DNA from: a bacterium
GTDB taxonomy: Bacteria; Eisenbacteria; RBG-16-71-46
DNA: 16,898 bases
NCBI GenBank assembly: GCA_043779265.1
Contig: JAYWEM010000162.1
Span: 1 to 16,898 of the forward strand
Direction of reading: 5' to 3'
Position 1 is the stretch's first letter, and every line of letters starts with the position of its first letter. The position numbers were made by a program, and so were the translations under genes. Positions 376-16,898 of the stretch are shown here, in pieces. Under the pieces are notes generated by a model, which searched no databases, was not told where the DNA came from, and saw nothing but the letters and a program-made list of their open reading frames with translations.

Positions 376-441
376 GTCCGAGGTCGGGGGCCAGCGAGGC
401 GAAACAGCGCCTCGCGCGGCCGTCGACCATCCGCAGTCCTC

Positions 442-469: not shown

Positions 470-470
470 G

Positions 471-629
471 TCTCACGCATGTTGGCAGAGTGGGCAGGCC
501 ATGTGGAAGGCGTTCCTTGCGAGGAATCGCCTCGAATCGCGATCACTCCCGGGAGCAGTCGAGGAGATCCGCGAGTTCCTGGTCGAACCGTTGAGGATCG
601 CGCGAGAGCGGATCGAGCGCGGCGGGTGA
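471..629 (+). pseudogene. C-terminal remnant of an AbiEii/AbiGii-like nucleotidyltransferase toxin gene
   Basis: Frame 3 after the IS end: QAMWKAFLARNRLESRSLPGAVEEIREFLVEPLRIARERIERGG*. This resembles the 'QW.AFL.KNRL...L..VV..LR.FL.P' tail of AbiEii-family toxins. There is no N-terminus because it abuts the IS3 end. Confidence 0.55.
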
Positions 630-657: not shown

Positions 658-733
658 TGGCGTCCCCAACGGGATTCGAACCCGTGTCGCCGCCGTGAAA
701 GGGCAGTGTCCTAGGCCTCTAGACGATAGGGAC
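658..733 (-). tRNA. tRNA-Glu (anticodon UUC), 76 nt, CCA encoded
   Basis: Reverse complement GTCCCTATCGTCTAGAGGCCTAGGACACTGCCCTTTCACGGCGGCGACACGGGTTCGAATCCCGTTGGGGACGCCA. Acceptor stem GTCCCTA/TGGGGAC, anticodon arm CTGCC-CTTTCAC-GGCGG, T arm CGGG-TTCGAAT-CCCG, discriminator G, CCA. Confidence 0.97.
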
Positions 734-747
734 GCAATCGGCGCGCG

Positions 748-776
748 ACGGTAGTCGGACCGGGCGATGCGCGCAA
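748..776 (-). promoter_or_regulatory. Putative sigma70-type promoter of tRNA-Glu
   Basis: Minus strand TTGCGC (776-771), 17-bp spacer, TACCGT (753-748), then a GC-rich stretch, 14 bp upstream of the mature tRNA 5' end. Confidence 0.55.
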
Positions 777-852
777 GCAGCCGAGCGCGCGTCGCCGGTA
801 CTCGTCCATGAACGCATGATCGGGCGCGTCGCCCGCGCTCGACTCGCCAGCA

Positions 853-912
853 CGTTTCGACTCCGAAGGAACTGCCGATTCACAGTTCCGTGTCAGATTC
901 GGAGTCGGGACG
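853..912 (+). promoter_or_regulatory. Long bulged inverted repeat upstream of the metalloprotease gene, overlapping an ECF-sigma-like promoter motif
   Basis: CGTTTCGACTCCGAA (853-867) pairs with TTCGGAGTCGGGACG (898-912; 13 Watson-Crick + 2 G-U). GGAACTG (868-874) pairs with CAGTTCC (883-889). The same stretch reads GGAACTG-N17-GTCAGA (868-897). Confidence 0.4.
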
Positions 913-979
913 CGAATCCCCATTGTGGGCGCTCCCTCTGGCGCCCCCCGGGTCATGGCCGACACCTAGGGAGCACGCG

Positions 980-3900
980 ATGCACGCCTTCCATCCTGCT
1001 GTTCCGCGGTCCCTTGTGCTCGCCGTGCTGGTGGCGGTCGTCCTGCCGATCCTCGGTCCCAAGGTGGCGAGTGGTCAGAGCGCTGCTCCCCCGAGCGCCG
1101 CTTGGAGCGCCGCCGCGGGCAGCGAGCCGTGCGGCTCGGAACTCAAGCTCGAGGAGTCGATCCAAGCGGACCCGGGGCTGCGTGAACGCCGGTCGCTCTT
1201 CGAGGCGCTGGTCCAGGAAGCCCAGCGCCAGGGGCTCGCTCCCAACCGATCCCAGATGGCGGGCCCCAGCTACGTGATCCCGGTGGTGGTGCACATCGTC
1301 CACCAGAACGGGCTCGAGAACATCTCCGACGCGCAGGTGCAGAGCCAGATCCATGCGCTCAATCGCGACTTCGCCGACTCGCTCTCGAACGGCTCGCCGG
1401 CCGTCAACACCAACATCCAGTTCTGCCTCGCCACGCAGCTTCCCAACGCGAGCCCGGTGGTGTGGTCCACCACCCCGGGCATCACGCGCACGTTCTCGGT
1501 GCAGACCAACCACACGTTCGGGAACTACGCGAGCGAGGTGGCGCTCAAGGCCATCGACTACCTGCCGTCGAACAAGTACCTGAACATCTGGGTGGTCAAC
1601 AACATCGCGGGCGCGGGCGGCGGCGTCGCCGGTTATGCCACGTTCCCCGGCACCGTGCCCCCGACACTCGACGGCATCGTGATCCGCTACACGGCGTTCG
1701 GCAGCAACACCACGCCCTTCGGCGGCCCGTGGCCCAACGCGCTGCCCAACAACGCCGACGGCAAGATCATGACACACGAGGTCGGCCACTACCTGAACGT
1801 CTACCACACGTTCCACGGCGCTTGTTCCTCGCAGGGCGACTTCGTGGCCGACACACCGCCCGAGGCGCTCTACCGCACCGGGTGCCCGGGCGGCTCGCTC
1901 ACGTCCTGCACCAACGTGAACGACCCGATCGAGAACTTCATGGACTACACCAACGACGCGTGCCGGTTCGCGTTCACGGCGGGTCAGACGGTGCGCATGC
2001 ACACCACGCTGTCGTCGTTCCGCGCCTCGCTGGTGAGCGGCCAGAACCTGCTGGACGTGGGCTGCGACAGCGGCCTCAACGCCCTCATCGTGCGCTCGCG
2101 CGGGCAGATCTGCAGTGCCGACACGGTGGCGTTCACCACGCCGGCGGCGGGCGCGGGCTGGACCTACGCGTGGAGCTTCCCGGGCGGCGTGCCGTCGTCC
2201 GCGAGCACACAGAGCGCCTCGGTCGTGTACCCGAATCCCGGCGTGTACTCGGCGACGCTGACCGTCACGGACGGCTTCTATGGCGTGAGCACCAACTCCG
2301 TGACCACCTACGTGCGCGCGTGCGTGCCGGTCACGGGACCGTGCCGGCAGTGGGTGTCGCCGCAGAACTCCTCGCTCGACTTCGGCACCGGGGTGCCGCG
2401 CCCCGTGGCGGGGCGCATCAACATCTCCGCCGAGCCCGGCTCGGCCGTTTCCGATGCCTCGGGCACACTGCTCTTCTACACCGACGGCATCCGGGCCTAC
2501 GACCGGACCAACACGATCATGCCGAACGGCACCGGACTGCTCGCGGGGACGAGTTCGCACAACGGCGCGCTGATCATCGCGCGCCCGGGCACCGCCTCGC
2601 AGTACTTCCTCTTCACCGTGCGCCAAGGGGAGGAGGCGCCCAATACCAGCGCGCTCAACTACAGCGTCGTGGACATGACGCTCAATGCGGGGTTCGGCGC
2701 CATCGTCACCGGTCAGAAGAACATCACCGTGGCGCTGCCCGGAACCCCGAACGCGATGCTCGAAGGCATGGCCGCGATCCCGCACTGCAACGGCACCGAC
2801 TGGTGGCTCATCTCGCACGGCGGATGGAACACCGACGGCAAGCTGTTCGTGACCCGCGTGACCAATGCGGGCCCCGCGGTGACGACGACCCACTCCATCG
2901 GACTCGCCGTGCCCGGCAACCCCTTCCTCGGCGCGATCGTGGCCTCGCGCGACGGCACCCGCATCGCCGGGGTCTCGGCCAGCTACGGAACGCTCGCGGT
3001 GTGGAACTTCAATCGCATGACCGGTGTGCCGACGACCCTGCTCGCCACCACCACGGCCTACGGAGGCTACGCCGACGTGGCGTTCAGCCCCAACGGCCGG
3101 CTGCTCTACCTCAATCACGCGAGTGCCGGCTTCGGCGTTCGGCAACTCGATCTGGTGACGCTCCAGATCCGCGATATCCTGACCGGCACCCTCACGGCGA
3201 TCGCCCAGGGCCCCGACGGCCTGATCTACATCGCCCCGGCGGGGGCCACGTCGCTTCACTGCATCAACTATCCGGACCAGTTCAACACCAACAATCTGAA
3301 TGAGTGCGGACTGAACCTTGCGAGCGTGCCGCTGGCGCCGGGCGCCACCACCGGGCCCTTCGGGGCGCTGCCGAACATGCCGCTCCAGTGCACCACCGTG
3401 CGGCCTGCGGAGTTCACGCACACGGTCACCAACTGCCTGACCGTGAACCTGACCTCGCTCAACTGTTCGGGTCCATGGACCTGGAACTTCGGGGACGCGA
3501 CGAGCGGCAGCGGGCAGACGGTGTCGCACACCTTCGCGGCTCCCGGCACCTACACCATCACGCTCACGGTGACGGGCGCCGTGCCGGCCACGATCCAGAG
3601 AACGGTCACGCTCGGCATGCAGCCGGTGTCCATCGCCGGCTCGTCCACCGTGTGCGACACCGTCGCGTACAACTACTCGGCGATCGGGCCGCCCAACTAC
3701 ACCTACTCCTGGAGCACCAGCGGCGGCACGCCCACGTTCGGCAGCGGCAGCAATATCGATGTGCTGTGGCCGCTCAGCTTCGGGACGCTGACGCTGGTGG
3801 CTTACGACTCCACCACCGGCTGCTCCGTGACGCTGACCAAGAACATCGGGCCGTGTCCCACCTGCACGCCGCCGCCCGCGAACATGACAGCGTGGTTCCC

Positions 3901-5566
3901 GCTCGATGAGACCTCGGGCACGCTGGCGCTCGAGACCGTGCTCGCCTCGCACGGCCAGGATGTGAACGGGCCGCTGCACGCTCCGGCCCAAGTGCGGCGC
4001 GGCCGCACGTTCGATGGCGTGAACCAGATGGTGCAGGCGCCTGATGCGCCCAATCTCGACTTCGGCACCGGCGACATCACCATCGACGCGTGGGTCCGCA
4101 CGGCGGTCGGCACCGGCATCCAGTCGGTCGTGGACAAGCGCACGGTGGATCCCGAACAGGGCTATGCGCTCTACCTCAAGCAAGGCCGTCTCGCATTCCG
4201 GCTCGCCGATCTCACCACGTCGACCGAGTACTGGCTGCCGACCACGCCCTACGTGGCCGACGGCCAGTGGCATCACGTGGCGGCCGTGCTGCGCCGCTCG
4301 GTGCCGGCCACGGGCACGCGCCTGTTCGTGGATGGCAACCTCGTCGCGAGCTTCCCCGCGTACGCCGGGGGCGATGTGAGCAACGCCGAGCCCCTCTTGA
4401 TCGGCGCCGTGGCCGGCTTCTTCGGCCCGCAGAGCTACACGGCCGGCTCGATCGACGAGGTCGAGTTGTTCCAGCGCTCGCTCACCGCCTCGGAGATCAG
4501 TGCCATCGTGCTCTCGGACTCGCTCGGCAAGTGCAAGGAGTTCAGCTGGGTGCCCACGGTGGCCAACATCTGCCGCGACCAGACTTCGCTCACGCTGACC
4601 ATGCGCGTCTGCAACTACACCACCACCACGCAGACTTATGCGATCACGTTCGGCCCGCAGCCGCTGGGCGGCATCTGCACTTGGGCGAGCCCCACGGGGA
4701 TCACGCTCACCACACCCGGCACGGTCACCGTGCCCGCCAACAGCTGCGTGTCCGTGACGTACACCGTGCCGCGGCCGCCGGGCATGCCGCTCTATCAGAC
4801 CTCCTGCTACCAGGTCACCGTCACCAACACCGCGACCTCGCAATCCACCACCAACATCGGCGCCATCTACTCCAGTCGGCGCTGGTGCAACCTCGTGATC
4901 GTCGGACCGGTGGGTGTCGGCGGCTGGGGCGGATCGAGTGGCTCGACCGGGGCGGCGCGCCTGGTGTTCCGGGTGACCAACACCGATGACGTTCCCGTCA
5001 CCGAGGCGTACTCCCTCTCGCTCGGCACCGCCCACGGCAGCGCGCCGGGTGAGGAGGCGCTGGTCTCGCTCGACGGCCTGCCGCCGGGCGAACCGGTCAC
5101 GGGTGGCCTGTCGCTGGCGCCGGGCGAGTCGGCTGATGTCGAAGTCCACGCCACCTTCGCCGAGCCGCGGGCGTTCCGCTTCTACGATGTGGTGTGGTCC
5201 ATGGACGAGGACGGCGACGGGATTGCCGAACCACTCCAGACCGGTGCCGTCTCGTTCGGGCAGACGCAGCCGACCGTGTCGGTTCCCGTCGAACCGAGAA
5301 CCGGCGTGCGGCTCACGCTCGGCGTCTCGCCCAACCCGGTGCGTTCCCATGCCACCGTTCGCTATGTGCTGCCCGCAGCCGGGCGCGTCGAGCTGACGCT
5401 CTATGACGTGGCGGGACGCGAGGCCACGCGCGTGCCCGCGTTCGATGCCCCAGCGGGGGAGGGCGCGGTCACGCTCGACTGCCGCGGGCTGCGGCGGGGC
5501 GTGTACTTCGCTCGGATGCGCGTGGACTCGCAGAGCGCGGGACAGAGGTTCCTGCGATTGGAATAG
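980..5566 (+). CDS. Secreted M43 (pappalysin/ulilysin-like) zinc metalloprotease with PKD, beta-propeller, PKD, LamG-like and C-terminal T9SS/FlgD-like sorting domains, ~1528 aa
   Basis: ATG 980 preceded by AGGGAG (968-973), preferred over GTG 890. Hydrophobic signal segment LVLAVLVAVVLPIL; propeptide CG motif; IPVVVHIVH...ENISDAQVQSQI..LN.DF; zinc motif HEVGHYLNVYH (1775-1807); Met-turn ENFMDYT; PKD motifs YAWSFPGG..YPNPGVYSATLTVTD and WTWNFGD..HTFAAPGTYTITLTVT; LamG DGQWHHVAAV..LFVDG..GSIDEVELFQRSL; C-terminal PNP...LYDVAGR...GVYFARM. Confidence 0.93.
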   Translation: MHAFHPAVPRSLVLAVLVAVVLPILGPKVASGQSAAPPSAAWSAAAGSEPCGSELKLEESIQADPGLRERRSLFEALVQEAQRQGLAPNRSQMAGPSYVIPVVVHIVHQNGLENISDAQVQSQIHALNRDFADSLSNGSPAVNTNIQFCLATQLPNASPVVWSTTPGITRTFSVQTNHTFGNYASEVALKAIDYLPSNKYLNIWVVNNIAGAGGGVAGYATFPGTVPPTLDGIVIRYTAFGSNTTPFGGPWPNALPNNADGKIMTHEVGHYLNVYHTFHGACSSQGDFVADTPPEALYRTGCPGGSLTSCTNVNDPIENFMDYTNDACRFAFTAGQTVRMHTTLSSFRASLVSGQNLLDVGCDSGLNALIVRSRGQICSADTVAFTTPAAGAGWTYAWSFPGGVPSSASTQSASVVYPNPGVYSATLTVTDGFYGVSTNSVTTYVRACVPVTGPCRQWVSPQNSSLDFGTGVPRPVAGRINISAEPGSAVSDASGTLLFYTDGIRAYDRTNTIMPNGTGLLAGTSSHNGALIIARPGTASQYFLFTVRQGEEAPNTSALNYSVVDMTLNAGFGAIVTGQKNITVALPGTPNAMLEGMAAIPHCNGTDWWLISHGGWNTDGKLFVTRVTNAGPAVTTTHSIGLAVPGNPFLGAIVASRDGTRIAGVSASYGTLAVWNFNRMTGVPTTLLATTTAYGGYADVAFSPNGRLLYLNHASAGFGVRQLDLVTLQIRDILTGTLTAIAQGPDGLIYIAPAGATSLHCINYPDQFNTNNLNECGLNLASVPLAPGATTGPFGALPNMPLQCTTVRPAEFTHTVTNCLTVNLTSLNCSGPWTWNFGDATSGSGQTVSHTFAAPGTYTITLTVTGAVPATIQRTVTLGMQPVSIAGSSTVCDTVAYNYSAIGPPNYTYSWSTSGGTPTFGSGSNIDVLWPLSFGTLTLVAYDSTTGCSVTLTKNIGPCPTCTPPPANMTAWFPLDETSGTLALETVLASHGQDVNGPLHAPAQVRRGRTFDGVNQMVQAPDAPNLDFGTGDITIDAWVRTAVGTGIQSVVDKRTVDPEQGYALYLKQGRLAFRLADLTTSTEYWLPTTPYVADGQWHHVAAVLRRSVPATGTRLFVDGNLVASFPAYAGGDVSNAEPLLIGAVAGFFGPQSYTAGSIDEVELFQRSLTASEISAIVLSDSLGKCKEFSWVPTVANICRDQTSLTLTMRVCNYTTTTQTYAITFGPQPLGGICTWASPTGITLTTPGTVTVPANSCVSVTYTVPRPPGMPLYQTSCYQVTVTNTATSQSTTNIGAIYSSRRWCNLVIVGPVGVGGWGGSSGSTGAARLVFRVTNTDDVPVTEAYSLSLGTAHGSAPGEEALVSLDGLPPGEPVTGGLSLAPGESADVEVHATFAEPRAFRFYDVVWSMDEDGDGIAEPLQTGAVSFGQTQPTVSVPVEPRTGVRLTLGVSPNPVRSHATVRYVLPAAGRVELTLYDVAGREATRVPAFDAPAGEGAVTLDCRGLRRGVYFARMRVDSQSAGQRFLRLE

Positions 5567-5705
5567 GTGCTGCGCGCCGCGGGCACGAGCGGCGATGCGG
5601 CTCGCCGAAGCACCTGGCGCCTTGCCGGTCGGTGATGTTCACGCTCGATACACCTAGCGCAGTCCATCCTCGATCACGGAACGCGCCGGGCGCGTGCAGG
5701 GGTTG

Positions 5706-5728
5706 TGGTATCCCCAACGGGATTCGAA
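5706..5728 (-). repeat. Copy of the tRNA-Glu 3' end (att-site-like fragment)
   Basis: TGGTATCCCCAACGGGATTCGAA vs TGGCGTCCCCAACGGGATTCGAA at 658-680: 21/23 identical, 18 bp perfect (5711-5728 = 663-680). Identity stops at the T-loop TTCGAA. Confidence 0.88.
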
Positions 5729-5779
5729 GCGGACCCCCCCCGCGAACCAGCGTCGCAACCCGTCGACCAAACGCGCAAA

Positions 5780-5868
5780 GACAACGACTTGCGCGAGGAG
5801 TCAGACGACGCGAGTGGACGGGAGTAGACGGAGAAGAGGGACAGTTCGGGGACAATTCGGGGACAGGC
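5780..5868. repeat. Cluster of short direct repeats resembling a tyrosine-integrase att arm
   Basis: IHF-like GACAACGACTT(G) 5780-5791; GAGTGGACGG/GAGTAGACGG (5812-5821, 5822-5831); three 11-bp-period repeats GGGACAGTTC / GGGGACAATTC / GGGGACAGGC (5838-5868). Confidence 0.6.
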
Positions 5869-5884
5869 TTCTCGCTGGGCAGTC

Positions 5885-6451
5885 TTATGGCCGGGAATGA
5901 AAGGTGGGGGGCAGGAAGACGGTGCTCCTCAGACAGACGCCATGAAGGCCGTCAATGAACGATTGGGCCACAGCGGCCGTCCATGCCACATTGGGCATCT
6001 CTGTGATGCGCGCGCCGCCTGGAGCAACCTTGGTGTATTCCAAGTCCTTTCCGGCGTAGGGATGAGATATCCAGTGAATGACTATGCGGTGCCCGTCGTT
6101 GAGTGGGAAGAATCTAGCTAAGCCTACGCGTTCCGCTTCCTGGAGACAGGCGGTGAGGTCATGACCAAAGGCCGAGCTCCTGAGCTCCCTCTCGCTCTTG
6201 TCATTGCAGCTTAGGAACGCTTTCAGCGAGAGCTCGATGGAGCGCGCGTAGAGGAAATAGATGACGAAGAGATGGTTAGAGCTATCAAGCTCCCGCGCAA
6301 ACTGTTCCAAGCCCAAGGTCCGCACATGCGCGGCCGAATGCCCCACCAGCACCAGTTCATTGGCGGCCGCAGCGAACTGCCGGGCCCGATCCAAGAGGGC
6401 AAGGGGAGAAAGAACCCCGCCTCGGGCACGGCTGCGGATCCAGCCGCGCAA
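5885..6451 (-). CDS. HEPN-like domain protein (start uncertain, possibly 5'-truncated)
   Basis: YFLYARSIELSLKAFL...ELRSSAFGHDLTACLQEA matches the 'E-x-x-LKA...HDL' pattern of HEPN-fold proteins. GC is locally low (29/60 at 6061-6120, 31/60 at 6241-6300). Only TTG starts are available near the 5' end. Confidence 0.6.
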   Translation of the reverse strand: MRGWIRSRARGGVLSPLALLDRARQFAAAANELVLVGHSAAHVRTLGLEQFARELDSSNHLFVIYFLYARSIELSLKAFLSCNDKSERELRSSAFGHDLTACLQEAERVGLARFFPLNDGHRIVIHWISHPYAGKDLEYTKVAPGGARITEMPNVAWTAAVAQSFIDGLHGVCLRSTVFLPPTFHSRP

Positions 6452-6467
6452 TCAGGAGGTGCGCCCC

Positions 6468-7301
6468 ATGAGTCCTGATTCGGATCGCGCTTCGACCGCG
6501 TCTGCTGATCCGTTCACGAAGTTCAAGGCCATGCAGCGCGAGGGCTGGTCACATTTCGGGCCGCTCGCCATCTTCACGACGCCACCGGCAGCACAACTGG
6601 TTCGGTTCGCGGGCGTTCGCGCGGGCGATCGTGTCCTGGACGTGGGGAGCGGAACGGGCGTTGCGGCCATCACCGCTGCTCGCCTGGGAGCGAGGGTGAC
6701 CGGATCGGACCTGTCGCCAGCCCTGCTCGATCAGGCACGCGAGAACGCGCTCATCGCAGGCGTCGAGCTCGAGTGGCGGGAAGCCGATGTCGAGCACCTG
6801 CCGTTTCGAGACGGCGAGTACGACGTCGTGCTCAGCCAGTTCGGGCACATGTTCGCGCCGCGGCCCGAGGTGGCGGTGTCGGAGATGCTGCGCGTGCTGC
6901 GTCCCGGTGGGACCATCGCGTTCTCGACGTGGCCGCCGGACCAGTTCGTGGCGCAGATGTTCGCCCTGACCGCTCGCTACGCGCCCCCGCCTCCGCCCGG
7001 AGTCGTGCCGCCCGCCCTGTGGGGCGAGCCCGCGATCATCCGAGAGCGACTGGGTACGGCCGTGCGCTACCTCGTGTTCGATCGCGACATGATGCGCGTC
7101 AACGCGCTCAGTCCGCAGCACGTGCGCCACTTCACCGAACGCACCGCCGCTCCGATCCTCAGGCTGGTCGAGGCGCTGGAGCCAAGCGATCCCGCGAAGC
7201 TCGAACAGTTCCGCAGGGAGTTCGACGCGCTTGCCGCCCAGTACTTCGAGATGAACGCGATGCGACAGTCGTATCTGATGACGAGGGGCGTGAAGGTGTG
7301 A
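6468..7301 (+). CDS. Class I SAM-dependent methyltransferase (UbiE-like/Methyltransf_11-25 type), 277 aa
   Basis: ATG 6468 with AGGAGGT at 6454-6460 (the ORF-track start at 6261 overlaps the HEPN gene). Motif I VLDVGSGTG, VTGSDLS, ADVEHLPFRDGEYDVV, EMLRVLRPGG. Confidence 0.93.
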   Translation: MSPDSDRASTASADPFTKFKAMQREGWSHFGPLAIFTTPPAAQLVRFAGVRAGDRVLDVGSGTGVAAITAARLGARVTGSDLSPALLDQARENALIAGVELEWREADVEHLPFRDGEYDVVLSQFGHMFAPRPEVAVSEMLRVLRPGGTIAFSTWPPDQFVAQMFALTARYAPPPPPGVVPPALWGEPAIIRERLGTAVRYLVFDRDMMRVNALSPQHVRHFTERTAAPILRLVEALEPSDPAKLEQFRREFDALAAQYFEMNAMRQSYLMTRGVKV

Positions 7302-7409
7302 TCAGTCGGTAGGCGCAGGACTGCTGTGCCGGACGGCGTCCGGAGTGGACTCAGCGAGAAGATCGTGAACGATGCCAGGAGCCCGCGCGCTCCGAACCCG
7401 CCTAACGGC

Positions 7410-10400
7410 TCACTGCATGACGAGCAGCTTCAGCGTGTGGAGTTGCCCGGATGCCTTGAGCCGCAAGAGATACACACCGGCGGGAAGTGAAGCACGCGAG
7501 GCCGATCTCGGCGACCAGCGGAGCTGCGTGTGACCCGCGCTCATCGGTCCGCGGAAGAGCGTCGCCACGCGCTGCCCGGTGACGCTGTACAGATCGATCT
7601 CCACGGGACCCGTGCGCGCGAGCGCCAGCGCGATGTTCGTGCTCGTTCGAAGCGGGTTGGGTGTGGCCGGCCCGAGCGCGTCGGCGATGGGCAGCGCCAC
7701 CGACTCGCTGCCGAGCACCGTGGGGATCTCGGTGGCGAAGGCCGAACCCTGATGCGCGCCGTCGATCGCCTGCACCGACCAGTAGCCCGAGGTCTGGGAT
7801 TGGATCACCGGCAGGCTCAGGCGGAGTTGCGCATTGCCCAGCTTCGGCACCTGACGCCAGCCATCGACCTGCGCCATCGCCGAGACCAACTGGCCCCCTC
7901 CGGGCGTGGTGCCGAGCCGGACGTTGTACGAAAGGCTCGCGGCAGGCGTGTGGTCATCGGTCGCGGGGCTCCAGGTGAGCGTCAAGACATTGCCGTTGAC
8001 GCTGCTGTTGAGCCCAACCGGCGCCGAGGGTGGCAGGTTGGGCGGCGCGCCGTCGTTCATGTAGAGGCCAGCCACGCCGAGTCCCGTGAGTGCCAGATCG
8101 ACGTCATGGTCGTTGTCGAAGTCGCCCCACGCGAGCGAGCTGTAGTAAGTGTTGGGAAGCGGCAGTTCGGTGTCCACATATCCGGCGGCGTCTTTGCGAT
8201 AGACGCGCGTCATCCCCACTCCGGCATCGATGTAGCCGGTCACCGCGATGTCGAGGTCGCCGTCGTTGTCGTAGTCCGCCCAGGCCGATCGAGAGGAACT
8301 GGCGCCCTCGACGTTGGCTCCGATTGGGATCAGCAGGTTGTCGGAGTTGCGATAGACCTCGGTGAATCGCTGCGATCCGGTCCAGCCGTTGATCAGCAGG
8401 TCCAGGTCGCCATCGGCGTCGTAGTCGCCCCAGCAGAGCGAGCCCTCCCACGCGCCCGGCAGCGAGAGCCCCGAGTTCACGAATCCGTTGCCGCCGTCGT
8501 TGCGGTACACGCGCGTGATGCCCTGCGTGCCGTTGTGCCCCATGACCGCCAGGTCGAGATCGCCGTCCTCGTCGACATCGCCCCAGTCGGCGTAGGTGAA
8601 TGCGACTCCCTCGACCGGGTACTTGAGCGCGAAGCGACCGTTGCGCTGGATGTAGATGCCGGCCTGATGCTGTGAGCCGTCGTAGCCCGAGGTGAAGAGG
8701 TCGAGGTCGCCATCGCCGTCGGCATCGCCCCATGCGACCGTGCCGTAGAGCACGCCAGGGAGATCCGTCGCGATGTCGGTGAAGGTGCCGGCGTCGTTGC
8801 GATAGATGCGCGTCACGAGTGGTCCGGCGTTCCAACCGCAGATCGCCAGGTCCAGATCGCCGTCGCGGTCGAAGTCCCCCCAGTCCACTGAGCCCCACTC
8901 CACGTTCGGGAGCGCGGTCGGCATGTCGGTGAAGGAACCGCCGCCGTTGTTGCGGTAGAGCTTGGTCACCGGACCGAATCCGTTGCTGCCGCACATGACG
9001 AGATCGAGGTCGCCGTCGCCGTCATAGTCGCCCCAGGCCATCGCGCTCCGGTAGAGGCCCGGGAATCCCGCCGCGACCGACTCCAGGACGATGCCGAGCG
9101 TCTGGGGGGGCGCGAACGCGCTGCTGCGATAGCCGGGGTCCACCGCCTGCACGCTCCAGTAGCAGCGCTGGTCGGGAAGGGTGAGGGTGATCGAACGCCT
9201 GCCGCGTGTGTTGCCGGGGCCGCCGATGCGATGGAATCCCGTGGCCGGGTTCGACATGGCCGAGAGGATCTGCTGGCCTCCGGGCGACGTGCCGACCCGG
9301 ACGTTGTAGGTGAGCCCGGTGCCCGTGGCATCGTGATCGTCGCTCGCAGCCGACCACGACAGTGTGAGTTGGTCGCCGTTGCGCGACCACGCGAGACCCG
9401 CGGGCACGGCGGGGGGGGCGTTGGAGGGAGCGCCGCAGCCCAGGAACACCTTGGTCAGCGCGGGCCCCGCGAGGCCCGAGAGCGCGACGTCGAGAATGCC
9501 GTCGCCGTTGCTGTCGCCCAGGTCGGCATCGCTGCTGAACACCGAGGGCAGCCCGGTTCCCGCGGCCGCCAGGAAGCCGCCTGCGGCAGTGCCGTAGAAG
9601 ACGCGCGCCTGCCGGCCGACGGTCGGGTTGTAGCCGGTGAGCAGGATGTCGAGGCGGCCGTCGTTGTCGAGGTCGCCCCAGTCGGAGGAGCCCTCCTGGA
9701 TGCCCGGGAGTCCCGCGAAGAGGTCGGTGAACGAGCCATCGCCGTTCGAGCGGTAGACGCGGGCGATCTGATCGGCGCCCACTCCGGTGCTGCCGGTGAG
9801 CAGCAGGTCCTCGTCGCCGTCGCGATCGAAGTCCGCCCACGCGGCGGTGCCGAAGGCGACACCGGGCAGGCCGCTCGCCATCGCGGTGAAGCCGCCGCCG
9901 CCATCGTTGCGGTAGAGGTCGGCGTGCCGGACGTTGCTGTCATCGAATCCGGTGATCAACAGATCGAGATCGCCATCGCCGTCGAAGTCGCCGAAGGCGC
10001 TCCTGCCCGAGGACACTCCGGGAAGCGACATCCCCAAGTCGTAGAAGATGCCCTGCTCATTGATGTAGAGACGCGAGATGGAGCCCGTGGAACTCGCGCC
10101 CGTGAGCAGCAGGTCGAGGTCGCCATCGCGGTCGATGTCGGCCCATGCGGCGGTGCCGCCGCAGAGTCCCGGCAAGCCGGCGCCGATGTCGGCGAACGAG
10201 CCGCCGGTGTTGCGGTAGATGCGGGTGACATAGATGCCCGAGGCGCAGCCGGTGATCACCAGATCGAGGTCGCCATCGCGGTCGTAGTCGCCCCAGGCCG
10301 ACGACGTGTAGTCCAGCGTCGGCAGTCCCGCTCCGACGGGACTGAAGCCGCCCCCGTTGCCGAGGTTGCGCCAGATGTCCGAACCGTTCACGCCGGTCAC

Positions 10401-13400
10401 CAGCAGGTCGAGTAGGTCGTCCCCGTCGTAGTCGCCGAACGCGACCGTGCTGGTGGTGGGCGTGATCGCGGCGCCCGCATCGGCATAGTGAGTGGCCACG
10501 CGTGCCACGGGGCCGCTCACGAAGACGGACGACTGGAATGCGGCGTCCACCGTCTGCACGCTCCAGTGGTACTCGCCCGGAGGCAGCGACAGCGTCCACG
10601 TGCGCCGCTGCTGCGCGTTGCCGCGCGCGGCCAGCTGGCGCCGATGGTTGACGGGCTCGGACTGCGAGGCGAACACGTCGTTGGCGCCAGGCGTTGTGCC
10701 GATGCGCAGGTTGTAGCCGAGCGCAGCGGTCGCCGTGCGATCGTCATTGCCCGCGCCCCACGAGAAGTTCACCTGGATCCTGCCGCCGATGCAGCCCGAG
10801 GTGTTGACGGCGAGGCCCGAGGGCGCGAAGGGGATGGCGTTGCCGACCGCGATGTCGTTGCGGTAGACCTGCGCCACGTTGGCCACGCTCGCCCAGCCGG
10901 TCTGGAACAGGTCGACGTCGCCATCACCGTCGAAGTCGGCCCACGCGAGCGAGGCGCGGCGGGCGCCATTGAGCCGCGCGCCGGTGTCGACGTAGGCGCC
11001 CGCATCGTTGCGATAGAGGCGCGTGACGTTGGCCGCGCCCTCGCGGCCGTTGACGGCGATGTCGAGGTCGCCGTCGTTGTCGTAGTCGCCCCAGCTCGCC
11101 TGGCCGTCGAGCTGCTGCGCGAGCGTCAGGATGGGCACGTAGATGCCGCCGCCGTTGTTGCGAATGACCCACAGCGCATTGCTGCCCATGAGCAGGAGGT
11201 CGAGGTCGCCATCCTCGTCGTAGTCCCCGAACTCGGCGGAGTACTCCACGCCCGGAAGGCCCGCGCCCGCATTCATGAACACGCCGCCGTCATTGCGATA
11301 GAGGATCGTGACGGGCGTGGTGGTGGCGCCCTGCCAGCCCGCCACCAGTAGATCGAGGTCGCCGTCGCCGTCATAGTCGCCCGCATCGAGCGAGGCGTGC
11401 TGGACGCCCACGAAGGCCATGGGCGATGCGCTGAAGCTGCCGCCCGTGTTCACATAGAGCCTCGTCAGGCCCGCGTTGCCGTAGGCCGGGCCCGCGCGGC
11501 CCGCGATCACCAGGTCGAGGTCGCCGTCGTTGTCGAAGTCGCCCCACACCTGGTCGGAGTAGGCGACCGGCTCGAAGGACCCGAAGATGTCGCTGAAGAC
11601 GCCGCCGGAGTTGCGATAGACGCGCGCGACGAGCGCGGGCCCCGAGCGCTCGCCGCTGATCGCCACGTCCAGGTCGCCGTCGCCGTCGTAGTCCCCGAGC
11701 CGCGCCGCCCCGGCCCAGACCTGAGGAAGCCCGGGGATGATCTGGGTGAACGTGCCGGCGCCGTTGTTGCGGCCGAGGTAGGTGGCCGGACTGGGGGGCA
11801 GCGTGTCGGAGACGGCGCGATTGCCCGTCCAGATCACGTCGAGATCGCCGTCGCCATCGACGTCGCCCCATTCGATCGAGCCGAATTGCGTTCCCGAGAG
11901 TGACGCGCCGAGCAGCGCGATCGCCGGCCCGGACGAACCTCCCGAGATCGGACCCGAGCGCCACACGCCGCGGCCGTAGGTGAAGGCGACGAGGCGATTG
12001 CCCTCCCAGTGGAGGTCCGAGACCTGCGTGTAGGCCGGACCCTCGGATTGCTCGTGGCTGCGCATGAGCCCCCACGTGAGGCCCTTGTCCTGGGACCCGA
12101 GCACGCCGAGCGCGGTGCCGGCGTAGATCCACGAGCGGTTGCTCGGATGGATCACGATCGTCTCCACCGCGACGGCCGGCAGGCCGGTGGACCCCGAGCC
12201 CGAGCGCACGCTCCACGTCGATCCGCCATCCGAGGTGAACCACACATTCGAGGCGGAGAAGCCGCCGAAGGTGACCCACACTTCGTTGGTGTTCGAGGGG
12301 TTGATGGCGATGTCGGTGACGATCCGATCCGGAAGTGGAGTGGCGCCGCCATCGAGATCGACCCAACTCACGCCATTGTCCGTGGAGCGTGACAGCGTGC
12401 CGTCGCTATAGCCCGCCCACACGAGCGAGGCGTTGGACGACACGAGTTCGATCGCAGAGCAGAGCGGGCCCATGGTGGGGCAGCCGCCGGGCGTGGGATT
12501 CGGCACGTGATTCACGGGGCCGCGCACCGAGGTCCAGCTGTCGGCGAAGTTGGTGGAGCGCCACAGGTTCCGGCCACCCGCGAACATCCGACCGGCGACC
12601 ACCGGGTCGGACTTGAACGGCGCGATGAAGCGTGCGGTGCAGCCATTCTGCGCATCGGTCAGGCCACCGATGCAGGTGCCCGGGATGCCGAAGACGCCGG
12701 GCTTCCAGAGCTCGAGATTCACGTACTGCCAGTAGTGCGTCGAGAGGTCGGCCGAATAGGCGCAGTAGCCGCCGTCGCCGCCGAAGCGGTTCACCCATGT
12801 GTTGGAGCCGGTGCGTCGCCACGTGCCGTTGTCCTGCAGGCCGCCCATCAGCTCGTTTGTGCCCGGTTGGATGGCGCCCTTGTAGAACTGCGTCGTGCGC
12901 AGGCCGTTCGAGAGGTTGGTCCAGCCCTCGTCGCCCGTGAGGATGTCGTCCTTGCGCTGGACGCCGCCGTCGTTGCCGAAGTAGACGCGGCGGTTGGTGG
13001 TGCCGTTGTAACCCGGATGAGAGACGATGACGTGGTGGTCGGCGTGTGCGCTGGCACCCGGGTAGGCCCACCATGTGCTGATCTTGGTGAAGTTCGCGCC
13101 ACCGTCGGTGCTGCGCCACGCATCGATGCCGGCGACCGCCACGACATTGGGATTGGTCGGGTCCACCCAGATCGCGTTGTCGTACCAGCCCTGATTGCCG
13201 AGGTACAGATCGCCCGTGCGGCGGCGAGTCCAGGTGGCACCGGCATCGAGTGAACGCCACACCTCGCCGCTCGCGCGGTCGACCGAGGCGAAGATCGTGG
13301 TCTCGTTCGAGCCGAGCGCGAACTCCACCCGCCCGGCATCGGCGGGCAGAAGCCCCGTCGCGCCGGTGTGCAGCGTGGTCCACGTCGCGCCGCTGTCGCC

Positions 13401-14351
13401 CGAGCGGAACGCGCCGGCGGCAGAGCCCACCATCACCACGTGCGTCGTGGGCGTCGCCTTCACGTCGCGCAGGTTGGCCATGTTGAGCACCAGGCTCCAG
13501 GTGTCGCCGAGGTTCGAGGAGCGGAGGAGCCCGTTCGAGGTGGCCGCATAGAGGAAGTCGTCCCCCGGCACCATCGCGAGGCGGCTCGTCTGGATCCATC
13601 CCGCGGTCGCCGGAAGCTGGGTCCACGTGGCGCCGTTGTCGGTGCTGCGGAAGACGCCGGCACCGCTCACGGTGCCTCCAGTGGCCGTGCCCACACCGTT
13701 CTGCTCCGCGAACTCGCCGGTTGCGGCGAACAGCGTGCCCGAGTCCGTGTCGATCACGAGCGAGGTGACCGAGAGCGAGGGGAGGAAGTCGTCGATCATG
13801 GTCCAGGAGAAGCCGCCGTCGAATGACGTGGCGATGCCGCCAGTGGCGGCGCCCGCCCAGAGGTGATTCGCGTCATTGGGATCGAACAGGATCGCGCGCG
13901 TGCGTCCGCCGATGTTCTCGGGTCCCATCCACTCCCAGTTGCCGAGCCCCGCGTCGAGCACACCGAGCGCGCCGCTGCGACGCAGTCGAGCGTCATTCAG
14001 TTCGAGTTCGTCCTTGGCCTCGATGAGGTCCTGTCCCGTGGCCGTCTCATCGCCGGCGGTCAGCATGGCCCAGCGCTCACGCATCAACTCGCCCGGGAAG
14101 TCCGGGCGGCGCATGCTTCGCGTCACGAGGTCCGGCCCGAACGTGCTGAAAGGCGGTGACACGCGGAGCCCATCGCGCGGGGCCGTCGCGGTGAGCCAGA
14201 TCGGCAAGAGGCCGCCCTCGCTGTCGTGCACGGGCAGCGACGCCCACGCGCTCTCGCTCCCGGAGTGATCAGGCCCGGCGCTCGCTGGAAGCGCCGGGCC
14301 CGACGCGAGCAACAGGGAGAGGAGCAGCGATCGGGTCGTGACGGCCTTCAT
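7410..14351 (-). CDS. Giant secreted protein: Asp-box (BNR; VPS10/sortilin/GH74-like) propeller region + 3 x [seven FG-GAP/VCBS repeats + Fn3-like domain] + C-terminal T9SS/FlgD-like domain, 2313 aa
   Basis: ATG preceded by GGAGGT (14362-14357); signal peptide MKAVTTRSLLLSLLLASGPALPASA; about ten S-x-D-x-G-x-[ST]-W Asp boxes; motifs GPENIGGR, HADHH, GNDGG, GGLQDNG; 21 [GA]D-x-D-x-DGDLD-like repeats in three sets of seven, each set followed by P..P.GL..W....DD....L.YN.R.GT.PG..Y.WSVQ.VD; ends PNP..LYSVTGQRVATL..GVYLLRL. Confidence 0.93.
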   Translation of the reverse strand: MKAVTTRSLLLSLLLASGPALPASAGPDHSGSESAWASLPVHDSEGGLLPIWLTATAPRDGLRVSPPFSTFGPDLVTRSMRRPDFPGELMRERWAMLTAGDETATGQDLIEAKDELELNDARLRRSGALGVLDAGLGNWEWMGPENIGGRTRAILFDPNDANHLWAGAATGGIATSFDGGFSWTMIDDFLPSLSVTSLVIDTDSGTLFAATGEFAEQNGVGTATGGTVSGAGVFRSTDNGATWTQLPATAGWIQTSRLAMVPGDDFLYAATSNGLLRSSNLGDTWSLVLNMANLRDVKATPTTHVVMVGSAAGAFRSGDSGATWTTLHTGATGLLPADAGRVEFALGSNETTIFASVDRASGEVWRSLDAGATWTRRRTGDLYLGNQGWYDNAIWVDPTNPNVVAVAGIDAWRSTDGGANFTKISTWWAYPGASAHADHHVIVSHPGYNGTTNRRVYFGNDGGVQRKDDILTGDEGWTNLSNGLRTTQFYKGAIQPGTNELMGGLQDNGTWRRTGSNTWVNRFGGDGGYCAYSADLSTHYWQYVNLELWKPGVFGIPGTCIGGLTDAQNGCTARFIAPFKSDPVVAGRMFAGGRNLWRSTNFADSWTSVRGPVNHVPNPTPGGCPTMGPLCSAIELVSSNASLVWAGYSDGTLSRSTDNGVSWVDLDGGATPLPDRIVTDIAINPSNTNEVWVTFGGFSASNVWFTSDGGSTWSVRSGSGSTGLPAVAVETIVIHPSNRSWIYAGTALGVLGSQDKGLTWGLMRSHEQSEGPAYTQVSDLHWEGNRLVAFTYGRGVWRSGPISGGSSGPAIALLGASLSGTQFGSIEWGDVDGDGDLDVIWTGNRAVSDTLPPSPATYLGRNNGAGTFTQIIPGLPQVWAGAARLGDYDGDGDLDVAISGERSGPALVARVYRNSGGVFSDIFGSFEPVAYSDQVWGDFDNDGDLDLVIAGRAGPAYGNAGLTRLYVNTGGSFSASPMAFVGVQHASLDAGDYDGDGDLDLLVAGWQGATTTPVTILYRNDGGVFMNAGAGLPGVEYSAEFGDYDEDGDLDLLLMGSNALWVIRNNGGGIYVPILTLAQQLDGQASWGDYDNDGDLDIAVNGREGAANVTRLYRNDAGAYVDTGARLNGARRASLAWADFDGDGDVDLFQTGWASVANVAQVYRNDIAVGNAIPFAPSGLAVNTSGCIGGRIQVNFSWGAGNDDRTATAALGYNLRIGTTPGANDVFASQSEPVNHRRQLAARGNAQQRRTWTLSLPPGEYHWSVQTVDAAFQSSVFVSGPVARVATHYADAGAAITPTTSTVAFGDYDGDDLLDLLVTGVNGSDIWRNLGNGGGFSPVGAGLPTLDYTSSAWGDYDRDGDLDLVITGCASGIYVTRIYRNTGGSFADIGAGLPGLCGGTAAWADIDRDGDLDLLLTGASSTGSISRLYINEQGIFYDLGMSLPGVSSGRSAFGDFDGDGDLDLLITGFDDSNVRHADLYRNDGGGGFTAMASGLPGVAFGTAAWADFDRDGDEDLLLTGSTGVGADQIARVYRSNGDGSFTDLFAGLPGIQEGSSDWGDLDNDGRLDILLTGYNPTVGRQARVFYGTAAGGFLAAAGTGLPSVFSSDADLGDSNGDGILDVALSGLAGPALTKVFLGCGAPSNAPPAVPAGLAWSRNGDQLTLSWSAASDDHDATGTGLTYNVRVGTSPGGQQILSAMSNPATGFHRIGGPGNTRGRRSITLTLPDQRCYWSVQAVDPGYRSSAFAPPQTLGIVLESVAAGFPGLYRSAMAWGDYDGDGDLDLVMCGSNGFGPVTKLYRNNGGGSFTDMPTALPNVEWGSVDWGDFDRDGDLDLAICGWNAGPLVTRIYRNDAGTFTDIATDLPGVLYGTVAWGDADGDGDLDLFTSGYDGSQHQAGIYIQRNGRFALKYPVEGVAFTYADWGDVDEDGDLDLAVMGHNGTQGITRVYRNDGGNGFVNSGLSLPGAWEGSLCWGDYDADGDLDLLINGWTGSQRFTEVYRNSDNLLIPIGANVEGASSSRSAWADYDNDGDLDIAVTGYIDAGVGMTRVYRKDAAGYVDTELPLPNTYYSSLAWGDFDNDHDVDLALTGLGVAGLYMNDGAPPNLPPSAPVGLNSSVNGNVLTLTWSPATDDHTPAASLSYNVRLGTTPGGGQLVSAMAQVDGWRQVPKLGNAQLRLSLPVIQSQTSGYWSVQAIDGAHQGSAFATEIPTVLGSESVALPIADALGPATPNPLRTSTNIALALARTGPVEIDLYSVTGQRVATLFRGPMSAGHTQLRWSPRSASRASLPAGVYLLRLKASGQLHTLKLLVMQ

Positions 14352-14575
14352 GGCGGACCTCCGGGGGCGACGCTCGGCTGGGGCGGGGACGGGGCTCGGT
14401 GCCCAGGCGCGCGGGCGAGACGCCGGACAGCAGGAAACGCCCGCGGGGTGCGCTGTGCTCTCTGGGACGATGCAAGCGGAGCGGCATCACAGGCGATTGC
14501 GATCGCGGCTGTCGCACGAGAAGGGAGGTCCGCTCCGAAGTCGTTGTCAGAAGCGCTGTTCACCGGAGAGAGGGT

Positions 14576-14618
14576 GCGCAAGACTGGGTGTCGCGTTAGC
14601 GCGCAAGACTGGGTGTCG
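14576..14618. repeat. Perfect 18-bp direct repeat, 25-bp period
   Basis: GCGCAAGACTGGGTGTCG at 14576-14593 and 14601-14618, in non-coding DNA upstream of the giant gene. Confidence 0.85.
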
Positions 14619-15067
14619 TTGGACACGGTGCACATGTCCGCGTTGCCTTGTCCCAGATTCGAATGCGCGGCCCCAGAATCCGTGCACTGCCAACGGGTTA
14701 CCCGCTCGAGCCCACCAGGCAACCGGTGGGTCTACGGGTGGCTTGGCTGTTCCTGCTTGAGGAGCGAAAGGCTGAGGCCTGGAAGTACGCGAACGAAGGC
14801 TGCCGAAAGGACGAGGTAAATGAGCATTGCCTGCGGATCCTCGAGAGGTTGGGGACAGGCGGTTTCGTTCCACCCAAGTGACATTGAAGGCGCTCGTGGG
14901 CGATATGAGCTCGCCTGAGAAGAACCTTGACGAAGGCTCTGGGTCCGCATAGCGGCGGCCACGATTGTTGGAGGACACCCGAATGTGACCCGAAGGTCCT
15001 GCTCGCTCTGAATCGACCCTCCGGCGTCCTGGATAGCCAGTCAGCGCAGTCCGACACCCCGAAGTCG

Positions 15068-15137
15068 CGGGACCCGAATCCGTGTCGCCGCCCCTTTTGG
15101 GCCAGGTCCCCGGCCTCGAGCCGATGGGGACGCAATC
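15068..15137 (-). pseudogene. Decayed copy of tRNA-Glu (5' 63 nt plus leader), lacking the acceptor 3' strand and CCA
   Basis: 15069-15137 aligns without gaps to 671-739 with 52/69 identities (hand count), including CCGTGTCGCCGCC and GGGACGCAATC. The six nucleotides TTTCAC of the anticodon loop are replaced by AAAAGG. Confidence 0.85.
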
Positions 15138-15214
15138 CGGCGCACGAGTCATTGGGCCTTGCCGACTCGCGCAAGCTGAAGGTGGTGCCCCCCAGCAGTG
15201 CGATCCCGCTGCGC

Positions 15215-16897
15215 CTACCTCGCGCCGCGCGAGATCAGCAGTACGCGCGCTTCGCTCACCATGCCGCGGGCCATCAGGTCGCTGGCGCCGTTCTCGGCGG
15301 CCGACTCGCTCGCCCAGTTGCCGAGCACGAGCCGGTACATGGTCACGCCGGCATCGCGGTAGGGCACGATGCGTACGGGCATCTTGGTGGCATCCGCCAC
15401 TCGTGCACGTTCCTCGCCGGCTCTCGCCTCATCCAGGTAGGCGCCGATCGCGACGCCGTACACGCGTGACGAGTCGCGCCTCACTGCGGTGGACCTCGGC
15501 GTCGTCGCGGCCGCTCGGGTGATGGGCTGCGGCAGCGCGAGAACGGGCGCCTCGACGCGGGTCGTATCGGGCGCCGGGGCTGATGTCACCGAGTCCACCA
15601 CAGCTGCGGGCGGCACGGGCGTGGGCTCGACGGTTGCGGCCTGGCCACCCGCGATGCCGCGCAGCACGGGTAGGTCGACGACTCCGAAGCGCTGCATGAG
15701 CACGGCACCGATCGCGAGTGCGGCAACGACGGCGGCGGTCATGAGCCAAGGTGCCACACCGGGCTTCTCGGCGGCCTCTTGCGCGAGTTCGGCCTCGATG
15801 CGTTCGCGCAGGCGAGGCGGGAGGTGGCTCAGATCGGCGCGCGTGGGATCGGCGGTCGCCGAGCGAGCAGCGAGCTCAGCGGGGCTCGGGAAGCGAGGCT
15901 CCTCGGGCGGCGGAAGTGCGGCCATCGCAGGGGCGCCTCCCTGCCAGCGCTTGGCCTCGTAGAGATCCTTGACGGCGGCGCTCCAGGCATCACGCTCGGA
16001 CGGATCGACGGGGTCGACGGCTGGCGGAGGGCTGCCGGTGAGTGCGGGCGGCTGCCACGAGGGCGCAGGCCGGACGAGCGGCGGCGGTGACCACATGTCC
16101 GACGGCGCGGTCCCGGGCTCGACGGCAGGCGGCGGCCACGCGGGCGGCGGCGTTGCGGGCTGGGCGGGCGGCTGCCAAGCCGAGGGCGGCAGCGCGGCCG
16201 GCTCGGGCGGCGGCGCAGGCGGCGACGACGCCGATGCGGGCGGCGTCACGGCGGCGAGTGGAGTCGTGGGAGCCGTGGGCGTCGCACCGAGCGTGTCCGG
16301 TGTGTCGGCATGTCCCGGCAACACGCTGCGGAACTCCGTCTCGCGTGCGACCTGCTGGATATGCACCCCGGTCACCGTCTGCGCGCCCTCGGCGAAGGCG
16401 GCGATCAGGGCGGCCGATGCGACCGTGTTGATCTCGCGCGGGATGCCGTGCGTGAGGCGGTAGATCTCGCGGCAGGTATCGGGCGGGAACAAGCGCCAGG
16501 CATTGCCGCCTGCCACCGAGACGCGGTGATGCACGTAGCCCGCGGTTTCCTCGGGCGACAGCGGGTTCAGCCGGTAGTGCACCGTGATGCGCTGACGCAA
16601 CTGACGCAGCTCGGGCCGTGACAGCTTCTGCTCCAACTCGGGCTGACCGACGAGGAAGATCTGCAGCAGCTTCTCGCCCTGCGACTCGACGTTCGAGAGC
16701 AGCCGGATCTCCTCCAGGAGGTCGGTCGCCAGATTCTGCGCCTCGTCGAGCACGAGCACGGAGTATTCACCGCGCGCGCGAACCGCGAGCAGGTGGCGTT
16801 CGAGTTGCACGAGCGCCTGCGGCTTGCTGCTGCCGGGAGGCAGCGGCAGCCCGAATCGCAGCGCGATCTCCTCGATCAGTTCCTGACGCGTCAGCGC
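15215..16897 (-). CDS. ExeA/GspA-family AAA ATPase with Pro-rich linker, TM helix and C-terminal SPOR-like domain (5'-partial; runs off the window)
   Basis: The frame stays open to the window edge (ALTRQELIEEIALRFGLPLPPGSSKPQALV...). Walker B VLVLDEAQNL, LEEIRLLSN, LVGQPEL, RQLRQRI, GIPREIN; TM WLMTAAVVAALAIGAVL; SPOR-like YGVAIGAY...MYRLVLGNWASESAA. Confidence 0.9.
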   Translation of the reverse strand, partial: ALTRQELIEEIALRFGLPLPPGSSKPQALVQLERHLLAVRARGEYSVLVLDEAQNLATDLLEEIRLLSNVESQGEKLLQIFLVGQPELEQKLSRPELRQLRQRITVHYRLNPLSPEETAGYVHHRVSVAGGNAWRLFPPDTCREIYRLTHGIPREINTVASAALIAAFAEGAQTVTGVHIQQVARETEFRSVLPGHADTPDTLGATPTAPTTPLAAVTPPASASSPPAPPPEPAALPPSAWQPPAQPATPPPAWPPPAVEPGTAPSDMWSPPPLVRPAPSWQPPALTGSPPPAVDPVDPSERDAWSAAVKDLYEAKRWQGGAPAMAALPPPEEPRFPSPAELAARSATADPTRADLSHLPPRLRERIEAELAQEAAEKPGVAPWLMTAAVVAALAIGAVLMQRFGVVDLPVLRGIAGGQAATVEPTPVPPAAVVDSVTSAPAPDTTRVEAPVLALPQPITRAAATTPRSTAVRRDSSRVYGVAIGAYLDEARAGEERARVADATKMPVRIVPYRDAGVTMYRLVLGNWASESAAENGASDLMARGMVSEARVLLISRGAR

Positions 16898-16898
16898 G

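Follow-up and report, generated by a model that had tools for sequence, protein, structure and literature searches.

Why does a bacterial genome carry its only tRNA-Glu(TTC) gene some 14 kb from the place that this gene holds in relatives, with a ruined copy left in that place? The question is raised by a 16,898-bp stretch of DNA (the window) from a member of the Eisenbacteria (lineage RBG-16-71-46), which is the entire contig C162 (JAYWEM010000162.1) of a 3.43-Mb assembly (GCA_043779265.1; source genome, referred to as G000). The window carries three tRNA-Glu homologues on the same strand, namely an intact gene, a 23-bp 3′ end and a decayed 5′ part, all of which were confirmed by BLASTN at word size 7 and by alignment. 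A reading made earlier from the sequence alone (the original prediction) had proposed that the copy beside an ExeA-like gene was split and killed by an insertion while a duplicate took over. Our analysis indicates that its geometry was right and that its cause was probably reversed, the duplicate coming first and death by redundancy second. The account that we favour, with even confidence, is that a block made of an M43 metallopeptidase gene, a promoter and a tRNA gene entered behind the resident tRNA, probably laterally, and that the resident then decayed from redundancy instead of being killed by an insertion. The arrangement was seen in one genome, G000, with which two of the genomes compared here, G001 and G002, are congeneric.

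The intact gene (658 to 733, minus strand; CCA-encoded) was called by ARAGORN as tRNA-Glu(TTC), in agreement with the original prediction. It is the sole tRNA in the window and the sole TTC tRNA-Glu among the ARAGORN calls on the whole assembly, which supports the original prediction that the copy 14 kb away is the one that remains. Its promoter (734 to 778, minus strand), 38/45 identical to that of G002, comprises a −35-like box (771 to 776), a 17-nt spacer and a −10-like box (748 to 753). The pattern TTGnnn-N16-18-TAnnnT was found upstream of 50 of the 57 tRNA-Glu loci examined, compared to 0.16% of random 80-mers.

The decayed copy (15068 to 15131, minus strand) corresponds to tRNA positions 1 to 64, with 47/64 matches to the live gene. 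When searched by BLASTN at word size 7 across the whole genome, 670 to 778 matched 15068 to 15176 at 72.7% identity over 110 bp (E = 5.8×10−9), and the offset of 14398 bp between the two copies, noted earlier, proved ungapped through the tRNA body. The significance of the alignment at 15069 to 15137 also held, its local score of 94 standing against 39.7 ± 3.7 (maximum 57) when the remainder of the window was dinucleotide-shuffled 200 times. Homology extends about 45 bp upstream, through a decayed promoter (15132 to 15176, minus strand; 33/45 identical to the live promoter) that has lost its −10 box and kept a −35-like box (15169 to 15174). The duplicated unit was therefore promoter plus gene, more than the gene alone. 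Spacers upstream of the −35 box yielded nothing significant in eight pairings.

Several features of a canonical tRNA are absent from the dead copy. Its anticodon loop is replaced, its D and T loops are changed, its 3′ acceptor strand is undetectable, with similarity past position 64 not above chance (p = 0.38), and 15068 to 15131 gave neither an ARAGORN call nor an Rfam tRNA match at E ≤ 10. Compared to the G001 gene, 12/23 A/T sites and 4/41 G/C sites have changed (16/64 in all). This decay, strongly skewed to A/T sites and set in a genome with about 95% G/C at four-fold sites, provides a small natural measure of substitution bias. Retention of the dead copy for a function, whether as a pseudo-tRNA or as a hairpin terminal to the ExeA-SPOR transcript, seems to us very improbable, even though several of its changes add pairing and a precedent exists in Bacillus cereus, where, in a passage of PMC3399842, the pseudo-tRNA tRNA-Other is described beside an island. 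We found no sign of kept structure: folding energy was ordinary against shuffles (z = −0.6 and −1.4) and against 2000 simulated decays with the same substitutions (p = 0.23). The −10 box is lost, there is no terminator-like site, and nothing similar occurs in G002 or in the SPOR-side sequences of relatives.

The place where this copy stands is set by the neighbouring ExeA-like AAA + SPOR gene, the conserved anchor of the locus, whose 3′ part (15215 to 16898, minus strand) continues on contig C95 behind a pyrE-like gene and whose protein has its nearest named match in Candidatus Eisenbacteria (96% aa). Among 24 other genomes of the same family, for which distances were taken from two tables with one locus cut by a contig end, the tRNA follows the SPOR match at a distance of 76 to 250 bp in 16, among them the congeneric G001 (76 bp). 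The remaining eight are G002, in which the tRNA lies about 12 kb from SPOR, G010, G013 and G015, in which it lies behind a pyrE-like gene with no full ExeA-SPOR gene, and four unplaced genomes. Sixty further SPOR loci from 52 genomes, two of them cut by contig ends, yielded 30 with an undecayed tRNA-Glu, 29 of these within 73 to 315 bp, and none with a decayed copy; the other 30 loci likely represent paralogous SPOR genes, contig ends or longer gaps. The ancestral order is thus pyrE, ExeA-SPOR, promoter and tRNA-Glu, with islands gathering behind the tRNA. Since the dead copy begins about 85 bp behind SPOR, as intact copies do in relatives, it occupies the ancestral position, and the claim that the copy beside the ExeA-like gene marks the original site is well supported by these relatives. 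Genes are inserted between SPOR and an intact tRNA in genomes of other genera (2.4 kb in G073, 1.6 kb in G083 and 1.0 kb in G051).

What, then, is the 23-bp fragment (5706 to 5728, minus strand)? It corresponds to tRNA positions 54 to 76 with 21/23 matches, 18 of them in one exact run (5711 to 5728), and it lies, as stated earlier, upstream of the only intact gene and downstream of the dead one. Beside it stands an element-side arm (5729 to 5870, minus strand) with short direct repeats at 5838 to 5866 and homologues in relatives. For the approximately 160 bp beside the fragment, 28 of 100 other genomes of the order gave homologues, the best being 89% identical over 159 bp in another genus. The best arm matches start or end at a tRNA fragment, and when the 13 best arm homologues are aligned, their resemblance to the tRNA sets in at the T loop. 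In G005, G025, G050, G051, G070 and G085 an intact tRNA-Glu precedes such ends on one contig, sometimes in tandem, and tyrosine integrases are present in the tRNA-Glu islands of G010, G050 and G022. These comparisons identify the fragment as the standard attR of a tRNA-Glu-targeting tyrosine-integrase element family, with the left end and the integrase gone, and they substantiate the view of the site as an integration hotspot. No Pfam match to an integrase was obtained among the eight window proteins scanned, and tblastn with two integrases from the tRNA-Glu islands of G010 and G050 found none in the window; the same search found relatives of 51 to 65% identity on contigs C79 and C89.

The fragment and the dead copy differ in age. 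Relative to the consensus of the 13 relatives, arm and fragment have changed at 1/47 A/T and 3/71 G/C conserved sites (4/118), in contrast to the dead copy (Fisher p = 1×10−6 for A/T sites and 2×10−5), although the columns were picked for conservation among the elements, which favours low counts and somewhat inflates the contrast. The 89% identity of the arm to a sequence from another genus agrees with low erosion. Since the arm is almost uneroded and the dead copy heavily eroded, the fragment is younger than most of the dead-copy decay, and the two are not equally old halves of one break. The complementary halves of the original prediction are therefore real as geometry, overlapping at positions 54 to 64, and unequal in age.

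A split of the SPOR-side tRNA by an insertion that did not restore it, with the 5′ part and the 23-bp 3′ part left at its two ends and a duplicate taking over, is consistent with the stop of dead-copy homology at position 64 and the undetectable 3′ end there, and the window has no remaining integrase of the family. At two positions in its acceptor end the fragment also departs from all 13 aligned relatives, which could be decay inherited from a host copy. We nevertheless consider such a split improbable, since the family restores the tRNA gene in relatives, as is the rule according to a passage of PMC4383910, and since the arrival of the arm postdates most of the decay. It would moreover have been survivable only with a duplicate already present, so that the duplicate comes first anyway. 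The claim that an insertion killed the SPOR-side gene is thus poorly supported, the fragment being the attR of a family that leaves the tRNA intact in relatives, with an arm far less eroded than the dead copy.

Read in the direction of the tRNA genes, the window begins with the ExeA-like AAA-SPOR gene, followed by the dead promoter and tRNA, about 700 bp with the ends of at least two mobile elements, and a gene for a 2313-aa FG-GAP protein. It continues with a methyltransferase gene and a 188-aa open reading frame (ORF), the arm and 23-bp fragment, 140 bp, an M43/PKD/LamG gene on the opposite strand, the live promoter and tRNA, and an AbiEii remnant cut by an IS3-type element. A misassembly joining two loci, a risk raised along with the original prediction, is scarcely credible as the source of this layout. 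The window is a contig of a metagenome-assembled genome, and no long read or single contig spans it whole; yet contigs from two runs, both possibly of the source sample, tile 707 to 16898 with zero differing letters and even depth (about 9 to 13), one assembled piece (11353 to 16898) crossing the dead copy and another (1922 to 6857) crossing the fragment. Among the listed contigs of these runs, none bridges the live tRNA to positions 1 to 657. SPOR, M43 gene and tRNA also occur in the same order on one G002 contig.

The M43 gene (980 to 5566, plus strand) codes for a 1528-aa secreted-type protein with an M43 zinc metallopeptidase domain (HExxH), PKD and LamG domains and a C-terminal sorting-like domain, and it holds the same place relative to the live tRNA in G002. 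Contig C48 of G002 carries, in order, the SPOR end, 5.5 kb of different cargo without a match in G000, the M43 gene (91.6% nt identity), propeller and ThiS genes, and the promoter with an intact tRNA-Glu, this tRNA region being 86% identical over 179 bp to window positions 660 to 838. The 12 kb between SPOR and tRNA contain no tRNA remnant, neither a dead copy nor an attR. That G002 has the M43-promoter-tRNA block in common with G000, and neither dead copy nor fragment, argues further against an insertion that split and killed the resident gene. The sequence common to the two genomes stops at the M43 stop codon, 140 bp from the attR.

Elsewhere, G000 and G002 are about 80% identical, and 3/82 background 1-kb fragments reached 90% or more, compared to 91 to 95% for three M43 fragments. 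At four-fold sites the M43 genes differ by 0.206 (189/918), evenly along their length, far below the background median of 0.404 in 59 gene pairs, one of which was as low as M43; pairs were dropped when codon position 1 differed more than position 3 (antisense shadow ORFs), when identity was below 55% or when fewer than 60 sites were available. ExeA and SPOR, with four-fold differences of 0.28 to 0.35 (ExeA 0.31), are at background level. M43 was therefore shared between G000 and G002 more recently than most genes. Its close homologues are patchy, found in G002 and then at 48 to 68% in 4 of the other 59 genomes searched, and M43 proteins of 83 to 93% identity are represented by P0002, P0003, P0090, P0091 and P0093, that of P0003, at 83%, being encoded on a 151-kb contig. 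No tRNA was found near M43 in the stretches around the seven closest other homologues in relatives' genomes, so that M43 is not generally tRNA-linked.

The G002 arrangement could also be read the other way round. The live gene would then be the original, pushed from SPOR by insertions upstream of its promoter, while the dead copy and its island would be newcomers from a relative, acquired through recombination within ExeA-SPOR on one side and an illegitimate junction close to the M43 stop on the right. G002 does show a pushed-away tRNA without a remnant, three other genomes (G073, G083 and G051) have upstream insertions, and sharing with G002 ends at the M43 stop close to the attR. We see little prospect for this explanation, given that ExeA and SPOR diverge from G002 at background level with M43 the outlier, and that an incoming tRNA and attR should have eroded together, which they have not.

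In the history that we favour, a block of M43 gene, promoter and whole tRNA-Glu would have been placed behind the resident tRNA, giving the direct repeat of promoter and tRNA that is seen around the cargo. The likeliest route would be that a circular piece recombined once with the chromosome within the shared tRNA sequence, the piece coming from a congeneric lineage whose M43 gene, like that of G002, already stood upstream of the tRNA promoter; single-crossover integration and anchor-assisted illegitimate recombination are both general concepts. Of the two copies one would have become redundant, and this may be why the −10 box, the anticodon loop and the 3′ end were lost from the copy beside SPOR. 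The dead copy would then have drifted with the strong A/T-to-G/C bias of the genome, and the attR would have arrived later than most of the decay. At its G/C sites the dead copy has changed by about as much (4/41, 10%) as the M43 difference would predict for one lineage, a rough comparison and a loose agreement only. More tentatively, and with clearly less confidence than in the entry of the block itself, we suggest that an essential single-copy tRNA was replaced by a foreign copy riding in with a giant secreted metallopeptidase gene. The tRNA would have served as a recombination anchor that brings its own promoter, and decay of the resident would have closed off the repeat recombination that would delete the cargo, thereby locking the cargo in. 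If this is true, tRNA hotspots could 'walk' along the chromosome with dead copies in their wake, an arrangement excluded by the rules of island finders.

Several observations, besides the inflated erosion contrast, weigh against this history. A young attR between a long-dead and a live copy is left unexplained by any one-step model. Integration into the dead gene is implausible because it needs an intact T-loop, which the dead copy lacks; it is possible that the attR came by integration into an older fragment, or that the segment was swapped in from another strain's array. Recent sharing with G002, furthermore, is demonstrated for M43 only, promoter and tRNA being at an ordinary level. Upstream of the tRNA, 80/100 bases match G002, inside the range of 61 to 95 for 11 other orthologous-looking tRNA pairs (of 19 loci compared, one was the present pair, four were without a G000 match, two were too short and one was not orthologous); recent transfer is therefore demonstrated for M43 and not for promoter or tRNA. 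The live tRNA bodies of G000 and G002 differ at 4/74 sites, more than in other pairs (96 to 100% identical). The dead promoter is closer to the live promoter of G000 (33/45) than to that of G002 (29/45), with that of G001 at 26/45, a small difference, but opposite to what an import from G002 would give. Finally, two genomes cannot fix the direction of the M43 transfer.

The promoter identities and the ordinary upstream identity to G002 also speak for a duplication inside the lineage, in which promoter and tRNA would have been doubled around M43 in an ancestor of G000, which may also be an ancestor of G002, and the first copy would have decayed here; G002 would have deleted the first copy or later acquired M43 and promoter by tRNA-anchored recombination. 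Such a duplication yields the same final structure as entry of a block. We judge it rather unlikely, as the low divergence of M43 then needs a separate event, the position of M43 between the copies is left without a reason, and upstream insertions at an undisplaced tRNA, as in G073, G083 and G051, account for G002 without any duplication. The hotspot of the original prediction stands, whereas its two giant secreted proteins are not one cargo: they have separate histories, M43 lying outside the attR-bounded segment.

The second of these proteins, encoded at 7410 to 14351 (minus strand), is a 2313-aa secreted-type protein with a Vps10-like propeller, FG-GAP repeats and a FlgD-Ig tail, whose N-terminal 817 aa have a best match of 45% among 60 relatives. 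Between it and the attR lie a gene for a SAM-dependent methyltransferase (6261 to 7301, plus strand), with a true start probably near 6468 and homologues at 66 to 81% nt identity in 31 of 100 other genomes, and the 188-aa ORF (5885 to 6451, minus strand), which has a lower GC content (0.60), is probable cargo and gave no match with Pfam or PADLOC. On the side of the dead copy, an insertion-sequence end remnant (14507 to 14626) is 72 to 83% identical to the ends of approximately 2.2-kb elements in relatives, which we take to be IS21-like from the look of their ORFs. A remnant of the end of another mobile element (14640 to 14712) has homologues in three relatives at a split gene beside a gene start, presumably comM-like and HTH, respectively. 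A 25-bp look-alike of the dead junction at 14660 to 14684 was considered as a second att site and dropped, since its homologues are the ends of a different element. Behind the live tRNA, and converging on it, is the C-terminal remnant of an AbiEii-type toxin gene (459 to 629, plus strand), old island cargo that is 45% identical over 56 aa to an island ORF of G005, itself AbiEii, the direct match being weak (E = 0.015). The 3′ remnant of an IS3-type transposase gene (1 to 473, plus strand) follows at the contig end, with related pieces on two other contigs. As this toxin-gene remnant, interrupted by the IS3-type element, stands immediately behind the live tRNA, the live copy has itself gathered island cargo.

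Relatives gave further observations on these families. Many tRNA-Glu islands of the group are small (1 to 10 kb) and often tandem, with the same end of approximately 160-bp arm and fragment and with unrelated cargo (G005, G025, G051, G070, G085, G050 and G074). The two integrase queries matched only G010, G022 and G050 among 25 loci. The small islands are possibly non-autonomous islets moved in trans, or fast-eroding islands. In G001 (L073:1-389), what we take to be the 3′ end of a gene like that of a large serine recombinase lies behind the intact tRNA and points at it. The M43-PKD-propeller-LamG protein is a member of a full-length family that counts at least 44 clusters (P0001-P0044), with up to three copies per genome (G044). 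The propeller and ThiS genes form a wandering pair, next to the tRNA promoter in G002 (L061:10788-12190) and elsewhere in G000 (C138:29093-30446) and G001 (C158), with flanks that do not align between G000 and G001. The tRNA-Glu(TTC) of G002 (L061:12312-12385) has two D-loop changes like the tRNA-Glu(CTC) of G000 (19/20 match), possibly by gene conversion between isoacceptors.

Searches for further cases brought none to light. A metagenome scan with the SPOR domain returned 597 candidate stretches, none of which was confirmed, and a metagenome pattern scan for promoter plus tRNA start returned two matches, both in unrelated gene context. Viral-contig scans gave 0 matches for the arm, 0 for the tRNA and, with an M43 relative, one distant match (29%). 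A relative in runs X3 and X4 has pieces of both giant genes, with hardly any coverage at 5641 to 6204 and 14665 to 15228; as contigs of low depth can indicate only presence, no weight was placed on these gaps. Three candidates in relatives were set aside. The second copy in G014 was taken as an assembly overlap, the two copies being part of a 1.9-kb stretch, 97% identical, with which a contig begins. The second copy in G010 is a 60-bp attR. The candidate on contig C78 of G019 (L067:5405-5482) is rather an intact, divergent tRNA-Glu(TTC) with its own 3′ fragment 5 kb away, on a contig that may come from another organism.

If our account is right, the locus preserves in legible form how a tRNA gene at an island hotspot shifted its position through duplication and decay, probably aided by lateral transfer, in a little-studied phylum. 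We found no account of a tRNA gene replaced by a duplicate with decay of the original among titles and abstract openings, a coverage that leaves subscription journals mostly outside. In xenologous gene displacement, a resident gene decays once an incoming copy has made it redundant. Such displacement is invoked, in a passage of PMC2764846, for a region following three tRNA genes; the displaced gene here would be a single tRNA-Glu(UUC), and a lateral origin is demonstrated only for the adjacent M43. Like tRNA-Other of Bacillus cereus, as presented in part of PMC3399842, the dead copy is a tRNA relic flanking an island, but it gives no sign of kept structure, promoter or conservation. Leftovers of integrating elements that resemble tRNAs are common, as a passage of PMC9897764 relates, and they resemble the present case in that inserted DNA is bordered by a complete tRNA copy on one side and by a tRNA-like, non-functional one on the other. 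The copies in that passage are near-identical partial repeats, whereas the present copy is 27% diverged, comes with a promoter and stands at the ancestral position.

The islands treated by Islander, as far as an excerpt of PMC4383910 goes, have in common with this locus a tRNA hotspot, a 3′ fragment that starts at the T loop and has an arm, a same-strand arrangement and several mobile-element remnants. The shared att arm of such islands is found here as well (28 of the 100 other genomes), and their order of intact tRNA, island and fragment, in some cases tandem, occurs in relatives. Unlike in an Islander-type island, the fragment here has a dead gene upstream of it and the live one downstream, the window holds no integrase, and a whole promoter and tRNA are duplicated, which is not a product of integrase action. 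According to the same excerpt, Islander discards any candidate whose 3′ fragment lies on the upstream side of the gene, and since tRNA-fragment island finders reject this configuration, such loci may be under-counted. The parts of the locus (attR, pseudogene and cargo turnover) are all known, and it is an unusual arrangement produced by ordinary processes, with no new molecular machine implied.

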